Positions 12,001 to 18,000 of a stretch of DNA of 64,000 nt are shown one piece after another (the first letter of the stretch is position 1; every line of letters begins with the position of its first letter). Origin of the DNA: a virus (lineage: Duplodnaviria; Heunggongvirae; Uroviricota; Caudoviricetes); the IMG/VR virus record IMGVR_UViG_2721755646_000010. One strand, 5' to 3'. Position numbers: made by a program.

Positions 12001-15000
12001 TGCCTATATTTTTAAACTTCACAGCAGGAAGTATCTTACCTGAGAATGAGCTAGCATCTTTACGTTATATTGTGCAGCAAAATCAAAATGATACTGTAAT
12101 CATAAAAGAACGTTATAAAATGGATATCCGTTATATCGAATCAGTCAATGGTTTTACAGTAAATCCTGTATGCAGTAATCATTTCTCCATATTTATGGCG
12201 AGACAAAACACTATTGCTCGCAACCTGGAACAGCAGATCAACAACGGACGAAGTTTTGCACAAATATCTCAGGATTTTATGCTTCAATTATCTTCAAATA
12301 TAGGATGGAAAAAAGGGGCCGAAAACGCCCTTAAAAATAAAATCCATTCTCATTCATTTGTTGTAAATCCTGATGAATTCTCTTGCGACACACAATTTCT
12401 TAAGTGCCCAATAACATTATGCGTTCCAGAAAAAGGGGTTTTTGTCAAGAATGCACTGAACTCCAACATATGCACTCTTTATGATAAGTCTGCGTTCATG
12501 AATCTCACAAGAGAACATCTACCCCACCCTCTCAGCAGGGAAAAGATAGTAAAAGAAATGATTATTGAAAGGAATATGTGTTATTTTGACACCATAAGTC
12601 AGCATTTCATAATTATGGATGCAGACCAACAGAAACAGCATTGTAAATAAAATGTAATAATTACATACTATTAGTGATTCTCATGCATCGTAAGCGGCTC
12701 GCCAGAACCGTATTGATATTTACTGAGGAGCCTGTACATAGATTTGTGTAATTGCCTGATTTTGATATGTTCAATCCAACATCAAAAGCAGGTTAATTTA
12801 TGGACGAAAAACAGTTGCAGGCTCTGGCTAACGAACTGGCCAAAAATCTCAAAACCCCTGAAGATCTCAGCCAGTTCGATCGCCTGCTGAAGAAAATCAG
12901 CGTTGAGGCAGCTCTCAACGCTGAAATGTCCCACCATCTGGGCTACGATAAAAACCAGCCTAAACCGGGTGCCAACTCCCGCAATGGCTATTCCACAAAG
13001 ACCGTTATCACCGGTGATGGCCACCTGGAACTACGCACTCCGCGCGATCGTGATGGCTCTTTTGAACCGCAACTTGTGAAGAAAAACCAGACCCGGATCA
13101 CCGGGATGGATAACCAGATCCTGTCGTTGTACGCCAAAGGCCTGACAACCCGCGAAATAGCGGCTGCGTTTAAAGAGCTGTATGACGCTGATGTCGTAAG
13201 CGTACAGCGAGGGCCGTATTGACGGGGATGTGTTATTCAGCTGGCAGTGCTATGCGCCACGGAAGCAGTTCGCTGACCCGGTTGACCGGCCAGTCTGCTA
13301 TGACGCCAAGCACATGGCGAAGGTAGCTTTCTGGATCCACGTCATTCAGTTTGCACGTCCCGATCAGGCTGTACAGTAGCGCTCCCCGCTCACCACCATG
13401 ATCAGAGCCGAAGAACAGGAAGTTTTTACGACCCAGACTGACCGCCCGCAGGGCATTTTCAGCGATGTTGTTGTCGATTTCCACCCAGCCATCGTTCGCA
13501 TAGTACGTCAGTGCCGGCCACTGGTTAAGTGCGTACGCGAACGCCTTCGCCAACTCTGAGTGTCGCGACAGGGTCTTCATCTTTTCACGCAACCAGCTTT
13601 CCAGGGATTTCAACAACGGTTTCGTTTTTCGCTGACGTTCAGCAAGCCGCTGCTCTGCCGGCATTCCCCTTATATCCGCCTCTATGGCGTACAACTGACC
13701 GATCTGCTCCAGGGCTTCTTCCGTCAGTGCTGACGGGATGCGGACGTGCACATCGTGGATCTTTCGGCGGGCATGAGCCCAGCAGGCAGCTTCCGTTATC
13801 CCACCATTGCGATACAGCTCGTTGAACCCGGCGTACGCATCCGCTTGCAGCACACCGCTGAAGCAGGCAAGATGAGTCTGCGGATGGATGCCTTTTCTGT
13901 CCGGGCTGTAAGCGAACCACACTGCAGGTGCCAACGCTGACCCTGCATTGCGGTCATCACGAACATACGCCCACAACCGCCCGGTCTTCGTCTTCTTATT
14001 ACCCGGCAGCAGTACCTGGACCGGGGTATCATCGGCATGGAGTTTGCCGTCAGTCATGACATAGCCATGAAGCGCCTCTTCCAGCGGAGACAGCAGCCGG
14101 CAGCATGCATCCACCCAGCCCGACAGCAGTGAACGCCTCAGCTCCACACCTTGCCGGCCGTATATTTCTGACTGGCGATACAGCGGGGTGTGCTCTGCAT
14201 ACTTCGAGGTCAGCACGCGGGCCAGCAGCCCCGGTCCGGCGATACCCCGCTCGATGGGCCGCGAAGGTGCAGGTGCCTGCACGATGGCATCGCACTGAGT
14301 ACAGGCATGTTTTTCCCGTACCGTCCGGATAACCCGGAAGGCGCTACGCATCAACTCCAGCTGTTCGGCGGTATCCTCGCCCAGATAGCTCAGTGAACCG
14401 CCGCAGTTCGGGCAGCACGGCGCCGCAGGCAACAGTCGCTTTTCGTCACGGGGTAGTGATTCAGGGAACGGCTTACGGGTGCGGGTCTGACGCAACGGAC
14501 GCTGTACTGCCGGGTCATACACCCTACCAGTCAGCGTATCGCTCTCTTTCTGAAGCCGGTTCAGATCGGCTTCCATTTGTGCGATACGGCGGGAGACTTT
14601 TTCGGAACGACTGCCGAAGTTCATCCGGCGGAGTTTATCCAGCTGCGCCTGCAGATGGTCTATTTCGCGCTCCCGGTTGCTCAGCTTTTCCTGCAGGGCG
14701 TGGATCAGCGCTTCCTGTTCGGCCAGGCGCTGTTTCAGCAGGAAGATGTCGTCAGAAGAGATGTCGTTCATAAGCCCGTATTTTACCGGGCTTATTCTGT
14801 GACAACCAGGATAAAGAGATTTACAGCATGGTCAGGGAGGTCAGCAGCCGCTTAGGCTGTCGCCAGTCGATACCTTCCAGCAGCATCGCCAGCTGCGCCT
14901 GCGTAAGGAACACTTTGCCATCACGGGCTGACGGCCAGGCGAAGCGCCCACGCTCCAGCCGTTTGGTCAGGAGGCACAGTCCGTCACCGGTGGACCACAG

Positions 15001-18000
15001 CAGTTTAACCTGACTGCCGCTGCGGCCCCGGAAAATGAAAACATGGCCGGACATGGGATCGTCTTTCAGCGCCGTTTGTACTTTCGCAGCCAGGCCGTTG
15101 AAGCCATTTCTCATATCGGTGATACCGGCAACCAGCCAAATTTTGGTCCCGGAAGGTAACGGGATCATCGCTTCAGTTCCTGTATCAGCAGAGTCAGGAG
15201 CTTTTCGCTGACATTGCCATTGAAGCGGAGCGTCCCGTGCCGGAACGTTACCTCACAGCTGATACTGAGGGTTTCCGGGTCCTCTGCGAGCGATTCTGGC
15301 TGTTCGGCAGCTGCATCGAGAGTCACAGGAAGTAGCTGGGGGCTCTCTGAAGAAGGTAATAGCAGCTTTCCCTCGCGCCATTGTTGTCGCCATTTGAACA
15401 ACAGATTGGCGTTAATGCCATTTTCAAGAGCAAGTTTTGAGATGGATATCCCGGGTTCACAGGAGGCAGCAACGAGCTGCTGTTTAAATTCGGGAGGATA
15501 ATTAGGGCAGCCTTTTCGCCTGCCGGGAGTCACATTTTTCTGCATATCTGATACTTTGGTTCCCACTACTTATTTGGTGGACACCACTTTGTCTAATTCG
15601 TCAGATTCTGACCAGACGGTTCAGGCTGTACGCTTACCTGATGTCTCACCGGCGCTGGTATCGAAGGTCACCGATGCCGTTATGGAGCAGGTAGTCGAAT
15701 GGCAAAACCGGCCACTGGATGCGGTCTATCCCATTGTTTATCTTGACTGTATTGTCCTGAAGGTTCGGCAGGACAGTCGCGTAATCAATAAATCCGTATT
15801 CCTCGCACTGGGTATCAATATCGAAGGCCAGAAAGAGTTACTGGGTATGTGGCTGGCCGAAAACGAGGGAGCGAAGTTCTGGCTCAATGTGCTGACTGAA
15901 CTAAAAAACCGCGGCCTGAACGATATTCTCATAGCCTGTGTCGACGGGCTGAAAGGCTTCCCGGACGCTATCAACACGGTGTATCCGGAAGCCCGCATCC
16001 AGCTGTGCATCGTGCATATGGTGCGCAACAGCCTGCGGTTCGTTTCCTGGAAGGACTACAAAGCCGTCACCCGCGACCTGAAAGCCATCTACCAGGCCCC
16101 CACAGAAGAAGCAGGCCAGCAGGCGCTGGAAGCGTTCGCCAGCGCCTGGGACAGTCGCTACCCGCAGATAAGCCGGAGCTGGCAGGCAAACTGGACCAAC
16201 CTGGCGATGTTCTTCGCTTACCCGGCAGATATCCGCAAAGTCATCTACACAACCAACGCCATCGAGTCGCTGAACAGCGTAATCCGGCATGCCATCAAAA
16301 AACGCAAGGTGTTCCCGACGGATGACTCAGTGAAAAAGGTCGTGTGGCTGGCAATCCAGGCGGCTTCACAGAAATGGACGATGCCACTGCGGGACTGGCG
16401 TATGGCAATGAGCCGCTTTATTATCGAGTTCGGTGACCGCCTGGACGGTCACTTCTGAGAAAAGGCATTTACACAGAATCGTGTACAGGGTCGATTTTAC
16501 TCGTTAATTAGCGAACAAACCACTCGTCAGCAGACTCCCAGGTATCTTTCAGCGTCTCCTGAACAAAAGTTTTTGCAGAATCTTTATCGGCGGTGCGAGT
16601 AACTGAAAGGCCATCGTTGCTGGTGGATTTGATGATCACTTCTACATCGTCATAACGTTTACTGACACGTCGCAGCATTTCTTGTTGCAGGGCAGGAACA
16701 GAACCTTTTGGCATTTTGTTGATTTTGGCTGCGGGGTATCTGTGGGGCATATATGGGACATAAAAAGGCCTCAAATAAACAGCAAAATCGAGATTAGGGA
16801 TTTTTAGAAAAAATACAACCATCTGAAAAAACTTAGAAAACACCCAAAAACCCACAGAATAGTAAAAAACATCTATGAATTATGGATTTCAAGAGTCATT
16901 CAATCTAACTAATTGATAAATAAAAAATTAACTTTTCATCGCTTCGTTATGGGGCATGGTTGGGGCAAACTCGCTTAACTGTGTATTTAACAGCGTTACC
17001 TGCGCATTATTATTTTCTGACATCCATTTCCCGTACACCTGAAACACCATTTGCGCATCTGCATGGCCCATCTGGTTTGCAATGAATGCCGGGTTAGCTC
17101 CTGCTGTTAACGACCAGCAGGCATAAGTGTGTCTCGACTGATACGATTTGCGATGGCGGATTCCGGCACGCTTTACCGCTGCGTCCCACATCTGCCTTAT
17201 TGAGTCAACGGTAAAATGGTCGCCATAATTTTTTACTTTCGCTGACACTTCAGGTTGAAAAACAAAGGTACATTTTTGTTTCTCTGTTCTGCCGAATTCT
17301 CTGAGGTGAACATCGATGATATGCTCTTTGCTCAGTCTCGTTAGTGCCATCTGACTCCGGAGAGCGTCGATTGCGGGCTTAATAAGGTGAATCACACGAT
17401 TGGTTCCCGCCTGTGTTTTTGGTACTGTAAAACGGTCTTTTGCCAGATTTCTTCTGATTATCATTCTGCCATTGCGCAAGATGGTTGCGGTTTTTCTTCA
17501 TCATTTTCTTCTTCTGTTTCCTGCTTAGCAGACAGTTCGCGGTTAACTTCTTCCAGGATATCTTTTTCCGGTGTATGTCGTGCAGCAGTGAGAGTTTCCT
17601 TGCTGGGGTTCTCGTGATCAGTCTCCGTTAAGTAGGCGTTGATATACCCCTGAAGGCGTCCCGGGTAGTGATAAAACTCAGGGTGAGCGCTCCGGATAAG
17701 TGCAAAAATAGCGGCGCGGGAATAGTCCAGAATACCCGGGGTTGCGCGAAGTGCTGCGGACCATTCTTTGAACGGACTTTCTCTTTTCAGGACGATTTCT
17801 TTTGCGCGACGATAAACGCTGCCCGGAATTTCATAAATATTAAAATCCATCGGAAGTGTGGCTGCTGCAATCTCCACATCCAGCGTATCGAAGGTGTGTA
17901 CTAAATTCGGATTGCGATCGGTTTTGTTCCCGCCACCGGCATTTGCACCGGAAGCCGTACGGGTGATACGCGAAACACGATTTCCTTTCATCCACTCTTT

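Follow-up and report, generated by a model that had tools for sequence, protein, structure and literature searches.

Introduction

In Escherichia coli O157:H7, the prophages Sp12 and Sp11 lie in tandem at ydfJ. In strain Sakai, the gene order across their junction runs through nleG genes, a cluster of insertion sequences (IS), dinI, a truncated int and a truncated exo, and the Sp11/Sp12 border is placed between int' and dinI. The integrases of Sp11 and Sp12 are both disrupted and neither prophage circularizes (PMC2669165).

Two kinds of IS are involved in the cluster. ISEc8 of O157:H7, a member of the IS66 family, is 2442 bp long, carries tnpA-tnpB-tnpC with an ATGA overlap, has termini starting with GTAAGCG, and makes an 8-bp target duplication. 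About nine copies are present per O157 genome, and Table S7 of the same study lists a copy in Sp12 (Sakai) and in Phi804-9 (FRIK804) (PMC7430833). The ISEic2/IS1414 group belongs to the IS256 family. The element restored in this work is 1315 bp long, has one 402-aa ORF of the Transposase_mut type and the ends GAGCCTGTACA...TGTACAGG(G/C)TC, and agrees with the group in these features. The IS256 family transposes via a circular copy-out intermediate (bioRxiv 10.1101/2023.06.07.543989).

Here, we analyze a stretch of 64,000 nucleotides from a virus record (IMGVR_UViG_2721755646_000010), hereafter the window, which is the Sp12/Sp11 junction at ydfJ. The window matches O157:H7 chromosomes at 100%, and the annotation there gives IS256 fragments around ISEc8 tnpA/B/C, from nleG7 to dinI. 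Its gene order is that of the Sakai tandem, and the second, repeat-bounded prophage has the expected size of about 45.8 kb (repeat spacing of 45,871 bp in the window vs. 45,778 bp given for Sp11). In contrast, Sakai carries an additional IS629 that separates dinI from the IS256-type element, and strain 319, the source of the annotation, has an IS629 inside Sp11 (an offset of about 1.3 kb); both are absent from the window. In the Sakai RefSeq record, the same DNA is labelled “ISEic2 Family: IS256 partial” and “ISEc8 Family: IS66,” inside Sp12 beside the Sp11 border. The 4-kb nested arrangement is found at 80% query coverage or more in 242 complete genomes, with 100% identity among the matches listed, and is therefore not an assembly artefact. 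The nested IS is thus real but ordinary, already known and annotated in the Sakai reference genome. We consider it very probable that the locus is an IS pile-up at the cargo end of Sp12, beside Sp11 and ydfJ, built by an ordered series of events.

A Complete ISEc8 Within an IS256-Type Transposase Gene

The following features make up the inner part of the cluster and its left border.

11982–12650, plus strand: effector gene nleG7, final cargo gene of Sp12 (prophage A) before the IS cluster (ORF; annotated nleG7 in strain 319 and others)
13188–13195, unstranded: target duplication CTGATGTC, left copy, 8 bp (sequence)
13196–15637, minus strand: ISEc8 (IS66 family), complete, 2442 bp (ORFs, termini, profile matches, annotation)
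13233–14771, minus strand: tnpC, intact ISEc8 ORF
14821–15168, minus strand: tnpB, intact ISEc8 ORF
15165–15545, or to 15566 from a GTG start, minus strand: tnpA, intact ISEc8 ORF
15638–15645, unstranded: target duplication CTGATGTC, right copy, 8 bp (sequence)

An earlier note on this DNA had described a 2442-bp IS66-family element with tnpA, tnpB, and tnpC splitting an IS256-family transposase, and the intact ORFs and their profile matches bear this out. The three ORFs match the NCBIfam models for IS66 TnpA (97 bits), IS66 TnpB (120 bits), and IS66 transposase (459 bits), and the Pfam families HTH_Tnp_1, TnpB_IS66, and DDE_Tnp_IS66. TnpC has the IS66 DDE domain, a zinc finger, and a leucine zipper (PF03050 at 356 bits, with PF13005, PF13007, and PF13817). 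The tnpA stop and the tnpB start overlap as ATGA at 15165–15168. The termini GTAAGCGTACAGC start with GTAAGCG and are perfect over 13 of 13 bp, with 22 of 30 positions identical over 30 bp. The name ISEc8, used by both PGAP and the Sakai record, comes from the annotation of identical DNA (“IS66-like element ISEc8 family transposase” in RefSeq, a repeat_region “ISEc8” in Sakai). We see no notable difference from the ISEc8 of O157:H7, and the coordinates here are exactly those of the FRIK804 copy in Table S7 of PMC7430833. ISEc8 is structurally intact and may still be mobile.

The 8-bp duplication reported at its flanks was re-inspected: the two copies of CTGATGTC are identical. Within 12001–17000 this 8-mer occurs only at 13188–13195 and 15638–15645, and it is single in uninterrupted IS256-type copies, to which the restored sequence is 100% identical. 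Excision in silico of 13196–15645 followed by re-translation joins ...ELYDADV/SPALVSK... in an open frame of 402 aa free of further stops, as the earlier note had proposed. In the window as it stands, the IS256-type transposase gene is split, and a single ORF of about 400 aa appears only after this excision.

The Outer Element Belongs to the ISEic2/IS1414 Group

The element that received ISEc8 has the following parts.

12728–16492, plus strand: outer IS256-family element, whole, 1315 bp when restored
12728–13195, plus strand: left part, with the left inverted repeat (12728–12757) and transposase codons 1–132 from the ATG at 12800 (end set by target duplications of relatives)
15638–16492, plus strand: right part, with transposase codons 130–402, the stop ending at 16458 (855 bp, “ISEic2 Family: IS256 partial” in Sakai)
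16463–16492, plus strand: right inverted repeat (sequence)

The restored 402-aa ORF is an IS256-family transposase (NF033543 at 424 bits; PF00872, Transposase_mut, at 397 bits). Natural uninterrupted copies match the restored element at 100% identity over its full length, which rules out chance. The restored transposase shares 98% identity with a transposase labelled ISEic2 and 95% with that of IS1414; at the nucleotide level, identity is 93.4% to an ISEic2-labelled copy and about 88% to IS1414. The inverted repeats are identical at 23 of 30 positions. In contrast to ISEic2 and IS1414, the element here is interrupted by ISEc8 and dead, and a target duplication is missing from its flanks. Moreover, the EAST1 frame of IS1414 is degenerate in it, with ATG changed to ACG and two cysteines lost.

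The outer ends, previously given as 12731–16488, need to be moved 3 bp further left and 4 bp further right. They lie at 12728 (GAGCCTGTACA...) and 16492 (...TGTACAGGGTC), because the 8-bp duplications of three independent relatives (GTCATTAC, ATGTGCAA, and GCCGGTAT) flank exactly these ends, GAGCC...G(G/C)TC, and because the Sakai annotation has its boundary there. The composite had been placed 4 bp from the att repeat; the true gap is 0 bp, and the outer element abuts the repeat.

This copy cannot make transposase. A hybrid ORF (15556–16458, 300 aa), with an in-frame TTG start from the ISEc8 end, would join 27 ISEc8-derived codons to the complete catalytic portion of the IS256-type transposase and lack the N-terminal part. 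A promoter scan of 12600–16950 gave no sigma-70-like site. If expressed, the hybrid product might act in trans on ISEic2/IS1414-type ends, for instance as an inhibitor, an idea to which we give only the slightest chance.

Related Strains

Among O55:H7 and early-branching O157 strains, 2013C-4465, 493/89, and LSU61 each carry, at the corresponding nleG7-dinI position, an uninterrupted copy that is 100% identical to the restored element. Equally identical uninterrupted copies are present in O55:H7 CB9615, RM12579, and DEC5D and in O157:H7 F3113, in a comparison confined to the element itself. In O55:H7 TB182A, the two flanks are about 1.3 kb apart, and the annotation places an IS256 family transposase in this interval. 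O55:H7 has the same IS junction, which is therefore older than the O55:H7/O157:H7 split. Strain 2013C-4465 has the order nleG7-IS256-dinI-ydfJ' and no second prophage, and 493/89 and LSU61 have Sp11 together with the uninterrupted IS256-type element.

A Truncated Third IS and the Missing Target Duplication

Comparison of the flanks of the outer element (TTACTGAG on the left vs. GATTTTAC on the right) shows no 8-9-bp target duplication, and the same unmatched flanks are found in 2013C-4465 and 493/89. This absence is read as a secondary rearrangement and not as non-membership in the IS256 family. The left flank is itself the remnant of an IS.

12691–12727, minus strand: stump of a third IS, ISCro1-like (IS66 family), tnpC-proximal terminus GTAAGCGGCTCGCCAGAACCGTATTGATATTTACTGAG, 37 bp (cut by the outer IS)

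Matches of 38-41 bp, at 100%, link the stump with the ends of IS66-family and ISCro1 elements, and in an alignment with the ISCro1 end on pCPWW7, GTAAGCG is exactly where homology begins. The O26:H11 version of the stump is uninterrupted and spans about 113 bp, reaching about 76 bp beyond the O157 cut. O145:H28 has the same gene arrangement around nleG7, and the stump is given as longer in O26 and O145 prophages. The missing duplication and the truncated ISCro1-like left flank together imply that DNA was lost or rearranged beside the outer element. This IS-associated deletion or rearrangement occurred before the O55:H7/O157:H7 split and did not remove att; the IS-excision enhancer (IEE) was considered as a possible cause, but the junction is older than typical O157:H7.

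Several observations bear on how this evidence is to be read. When the left and right flanks were joined as one query, no contiguous match (nleG7-dinI without the IS256-type element) was found at 80% coverage or more in 5,426 complete E. coli genomes; hence, the pre-insertion state and the size of the deletion were not observed in this collection. The best local alignment of the left IS flank with the DNA upstream of repeat copy 2 is a chance-level 16-mer. A resemblance by eye of CCGTATTGATATTTACT to CCGTTACTGATTTTACT was rejected, its score being no better than chance. Two copies elsewhere, at 99.5-99.6% identity (L008, L009/L013), also have no duplications, in contexts that are IS-rich or truncated; a missing duplication is thus no rarity for this element and, by itself, counts for less as evidence. 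Finally, relative to the tail genes, the nleG7-stump cassette of O26 and O145 has the orientation opposite to that in O157, so that inversions or phage mosaicism, and not a simple deletion, may be part of the history.

How the duplication was lost is a point on which we infer a deletion or recombination adjacent to the element. Homologous recombination between two IS256-type copies, one in the ISCro1 stump and one beside dinI, which would remove the DNA between them and leave a single hybrid copy, is a possible route that we hold tentatively, the other being a deletion made by the transposase next to a single copy: either route gives one IS with unmatched flanks, as observed, and the element is multi-copy in some genomes, at up to 6 places per record. 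However, no second copy or intermediate was seen at the locus in any genome inspected, and the end product, being the same for both routes, does not discriminate between them. We think it very unlikely that the boundary is a mosaic joint that already existed, where the homology of prophages A and B happens to end, and into which the IS inserted. In favor of such a joint, O157 lambdoid prophages are highly mosaic, and other prophages carry the nleG7 cassette in reverse orientation. Against it, the first base beyond the IS is exactly where homology with prophage B sets in, the cut on the left falls within an IS66-type stump that is longer elsewhere, and plain insertion at a joint would leave an 8-bp duplication, of which none is present.

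The att Region and the Immobility of Sp11 and Sp12

To the right of the outer element lie the arm of Sp12 and the beginning of Sp11.

16493–16890, unstranded: exact direct repeat of 398 bp, copy 1, right arm of prophage A (Sp12) (copy 2 at 62364–62761)
16508–16750, minus strand: dinI-like gene, inside repeat copy 1
16928–17479, minus strand: integrase remnant of prophage B (Sp11), C-terminal, 183 aa (ORF, annotation)

The repeat starts at the base directly after the IS end and ends at 16890, where the two copies split (int vs. ydfJ'). The att region is at its right end, with the crossover near 16890, about 400 bp from the IS. Because the attL side of Sp12 is deleted in Sakai, the 398-bp repeat gives the att core a right limit only.

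According to the earlier note, removal or inactivation of the end of prophage A by the composite was a possibility. DNA was indeed lost or rearranged beside the IS, but att is intact and the crossover end untouched. The stronger version, in which the composite IS destroyed or deleted the right-hand att of prophage A and thereby locked this prophage into the chromosome, is in our judgment very improbable, even though the IS directly abuts the 398-bp repeat, the outer element has no target duplication, and neither prophage circularizes (PMC2669165). Indeed, not one base differs between the arm at 16493–16890 and its counterpart at the outer attR, and att is therefore undamaged; the whole dinI-like gene lies between the IS end and the divergence point. 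In addition, Sp11 integrated at this att region, and its int and xis are intact in 493/89 and LSU61, which suggests that the site worked with the IS adjacent. Other lesions, and not the IS, explain the immobility of both prophages. Sp11 has a truncated integrase and lacks xis (the int-xis-exo deletion was mapped), and the integrase lesion cripples it, whereas 493/89 and LSU61 retain the complete 431-aa integrase along with xis and exo. Sp12 has a truncated intR and has lost its left end next to ynfA.

A Proposed History of the Locus

The structure and the order of events at the locus are established, and the steps were very probably as follows. First, only a stump was left by decay of an ISCro1-like IS66-family element that lay downstream of nleG7. 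The 1315-bp IS256-family element then inserted into this stump, before O55:H7 and O157:H7 diverged, and an adjacent deletion or recombination would have joined its other end to the dinI-att arm, thereby leaving the outer element without a target duplication. Later, Sp11 integrated at the Sp12 att site, duplicating the 398-bp arm. In the typical O157:H7 lineage, ISEc8 entered codon 132 of the IS256-type transposase gene with an 8-bp duplication, killing the outer element. This codon lies in the N-terminal region of the transposase, in a putative helix-turn-helix. The int-xis-exo deletion of Sp11, like the insertion of ISEc8, followed the arrival of Sp11, and IS629 came last, in Sakai.

The composite itself is functionless: a neutral scar that marks the lineage and adds to the repeated DNA available for homologous recombination. 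Its importance beyond bookkeeping is small and it opens no new question. Nevertheless, the layered insertions allow events at the ydfJ prophage locus to be ordered cleanly relative to one another in the lineage leading from O55:H7 to O157:H7, and the ISEc8-in-IS256 junction is a usable marker of typical O157:H7. For effector-carrying prophages, the locus illustrates that cargo ends tolerate repeated IS insertions.

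Locus and Existing Annotation

The window comes from the ydfJ locus of the Escherichia coli O157:H7 chromosome, the site of a tandem pair of lambdoid prophages named Sp12 (left) and Sp11 (right) in strain Sakai. To the left of the insertion sequence (IS) cluster are found tail-fibre genes, an nleG pseudogene and nleG7. On the other side come a dinI-like gene, the C-terminal 183 aa of an integrase and a recE-type exonuclease that is also truncated; the remainder of the second prophage then ends with three nleG-type genes, followed by another dinI and ydfJ'. In the Sakai record, the Sp11|Sp12 border is set between an int pseudogene (ECs_2217) and dinI (ECs_2218), and ECs_2221-2225 correspond to two transposase fragments around ISEc8. 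This ISEc8 copy also appears in Table S7 of PMC7430833, with coordinates in the O157 strain FRIK804 (2138285-2140726) that correspond exactly to window positions 13196-15637. The structure is therefore already catalogued; it is annotated and ordinary.

Four copies of a 70-nt unit (7797-7866, 10825-10894, 11471-11540 and 60104-60173) also lie in the tail-fibre and nleG cargo of the two prophages; in each, a hairpin, CCGGAGTCCGGCTCCGG, is followed by a T run. These units look like terminators.

The Inner Element, ISEc8

Within 12001-17000, the octamer CTGATGTC is found only at 13188-13195 and 15638-15645. The two copies, the 8-bp duplication described in the earlier note, frame a segment of 2442 bp (13196-15637). 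Its two ends form an inverted repeat, GTAAGCGTACAGC, that is perfect for 13 bp; over 30 bp, the identity of the ends is 22/30. It carries three intact ORFs.

ORFs of ISEc8
15165-15566, minus: TnpA, 133 aa; IS66 TnpA (NCBIfam, 97 bits), Pfam HTH_Tnp_1
14821-15168, minus: TnpB, 115 aa; IS66 TnpB (NCBIfam, 120 bits), Pfam TnpB_IS66
13233-14771, minus: transposase, 512 aa; IS66 transposase (NCBIfam, 459 bits), Pfam DDE_Tnp_IS66

The first two share an ATGA overlap, and the third also has the zinc-finger, zipper and C-terminal modules of DDE_Tnp_IS66 (Pfam). The ORFs, their model matches and the termini thus bear out an IS66-family insert with tnpA, tnpB and tnpC. Because all three genes and both ends are retained, ISEc8 may still be mobile.

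The Outer Element and Its Ends

In silico excision of 13196-15645 joins ...ELYDADV to SPALVSK... and, on re-translation, gives the single transposase frame described earlier: a stop-free ORF of 402 aa that scores 424 bits against the IS256-family transposase model and 397 bits against Pfam Transposase_mut. ISEc8 follows codon 132, within the N-terminal region of the protein. The restored element is identical (100%, full length) to natural uninterrupted copies found elsewhere. The interrupted 4-kb arrangement is present at ≥80% query coverage in 242 of 5,426 complete E. coli genomes; in the matches listed it is 100% identical, and these all come from O157:H7 or close relatives. Hence, the natural copies and the recurrence of the arrangement place it decisively beyond chance or artefact. 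The interpretation of an IS66-family element nested within an IS256-family transposase is right, and this transposase, split by ISEc8, is now dead.

The 8-bp target duplications of three independent relatives set the ends of the outer element 3 bp outside the CCTGTACA...TGTACAGG inverted repeat, at GAGCCTGTACA... and ...ACAGG(G/C)TC.

Target duplications of relatives
IS1414, strain TUM9975, between lacZ and lacY: GTCATTAC
99.6% copy, plasmid pE110019_65: ATGTGCAA
ISEic2-labelled copy inside tnaA: GCCGGTAT

Therefore, the element in the window spans 12728-16492 (1315 bp when restored), with inverted repeats 23/30 identical. The earlier description of an IS256-family element with inverted repeats holds, and its coordinates, 12731-16488, are to be replaced. 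Independently, the 855-bp Sakai RefSeq feature “ISEic2 Family: IS256 partial” corresponds to 15638-16492 and stops at the same base. At the protein level, the restored transposase shares 98% identity with the ISEic2-labelled copy and 95% with IS1414; at the nucleotide level, the values are 93.4% and about 88%, respectively.

Other features of this element can be mentioned. Positions 15965-16081 are 78% identical to the overlapping EAST1 enterotoxin (astA) frame of IS1414; however, the frame is degenerate in the window, with ACG in place of the ATG start and ACASCHG changed to ACGSFPG, two cysteines being lost. The first 99 bp (12728-12826) match at 92.9% a single locus that thousands of E. coli chromosomes share, K-12 and B derivatives among them, and that is mostly annotated as “hypothetical protein.” This core-genome locus has the appearance of an old, solo remnant of the left end. 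Finally, a 300-aa ORF (15556-16458) starts with a TTG in the ISEc8 end and continues in frame with the catalytic part of the outer transposase; a promoter scan of 12600-16950 gave no promoter-like site for this hybrid.

The att Repeat and Prophage Immobility

The att repeat, an exact direct repeat of 398 bp (16493-16890 and 62364-62761), begins at the first base past the corrected IS end, so that the 4-bp gap previously noted disappears. A complete dinI-like gene (16508-16750) is contained within it. Since the two copies diverge at the far end, where copy 1 enters the Sp11 integrase and copy 2 enters ydfJ', the site-specific crossover must, on this comparison, have occurred at or near that right end, about 400 bp from the IS. 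The geometry suggests that the rest of the repeat is a homologous right arm carried by both phages.

The integrases of Sp11 and Sp12 are reported to be disrupted and neither prophage to circularize (Asadulghani et al., PMC2669165). As compared with 493/89 and LSU61, the ISEc8-carrying genomes have a deletion of ~2.3 kb in Sp11, which takes the N-terminal part of int, xis and the exonuclease C-terminus; its junction is near 17465 (~17461-17473), at a short TCAT microhomology. It is this deletion, not the IS, that disables Sp11 excision. The far end of Sp12 is also deleted, a truncated intR directly adjoining ynfA. These two lesions explain non-circularization without the IS.

In strain 319 (L014, 1-1414), a prophage with this right end starts beside ompW with an intact integrase, in contrast to the truncated intR beside ynfA of Sakai Sp12 (L019, 2333-3027). 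Judging from these arrangements, the chromosome of strain 319 has evidently undergone a large rearrangement, one breakpoint of which falls within this prophage.

Rearrangement Beside the Outer Element

The outer element has no target duplication: TTACTGAG precedes it, whereas GATTTTAC follows it. The 37 bp to its left (12691-12727) are the end of an ISCro1-like IS66-family element. This stump shows 100% identity, in matches of 38-41 bp, with the tnpC-proximal ends of elements of this type, and in an alignment with the complete ISCro1 of pCPWW7, homology starts exactly at the GTAAGCG terminus. Thus, three IS layers are stacked at the locus, not two: the ISCro1-like stump, the IS256-type element and ISEc8. 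In the nleG7 cassette of O26:H11, within a prophage at a different integration site, the stump runs uninterrupted for ~113 bp before other DNA; O145:H28, compared by genes only, has the same arrangement around nleG7. The IS256-type element truncates the O157 stump to 37 bp. On the far side of this element, neither the rest of the stump nor a TTACTGAG duplicate was found in O157, and homology to the Sp11 arm begins from the very first base. The absence of target duplication, the cut stump and the immediate Sp11-arm homology indicate that the two flanks were originally non-adjacent.

They were joined either by a deletion that started at one end of the IS and removed adjacent DNA or by recombination between two IS copies; the end product is alike in both cases. 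A joined-flank search among the 5,426 complete E. coli genomes gave no IS-free junction. The outer-element flanks are identical in 493/89 and in 2013C-4465, whose ydfJ locus has only one prophage; O55:H7 strains have uninterrupted copies that are 100% identical, and O55:H7 TB182A has nleG7, IS256, dinI and ydfJ at one place. Because of these shared features, the joining event, whichever its route, is older than the O55:H7/O157:H7 split. The earlier suggestion that the composite may have removed or inactivated the Sp12 end is partly right, as an old IS-associated rearrangement of the cargo region, not as a loss of att, which is intact despite it.

Order of Events and Significance

The ISCro1-like stump is the oldest layer, common to the O26 and O145 prophages (O145 by gene arrangement). 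The IS256-type element and its junctions follow, common to O55:H7, sorbitol-fermenting O157 493/89, LSU61 and typical O157:H7. Sp11, absent from 2013C-4465 and apparently from O55:H7 TB182A, then arrived while the outer element was not yet interrupted; 493/89 and LSU61 have Sp11 with intact int (431 aa), xis and exonuclease beside an uninterrupted IS256-type element. ISEc8, found in the outer element in the typical O157:H7 set only, inserted next through the usual IS66-family transposition, making an 8-bp duplication and splitting the outer transposase. The ~2.3-kb Sp11 deletion, carried by the same genomes, belongs to this later stage too. IS629 was the last addition, in Sakai: an IS629/IS1203 copy lies there between dinI and the IS256-type element (NC_002695.2, 2204371-2205680) and has no counterpart in the window. 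At least four different IS elements have hit this short stretch of cargo.

Overall, the initial observation is upheld with small coordinate corrections, for a feature that was already known. The nested composite has no function as a unit. The region undergoes deletions between direct repeats (PMC7430833), and the IS cluster represents extra repeated DNA in this deletion-prone region.
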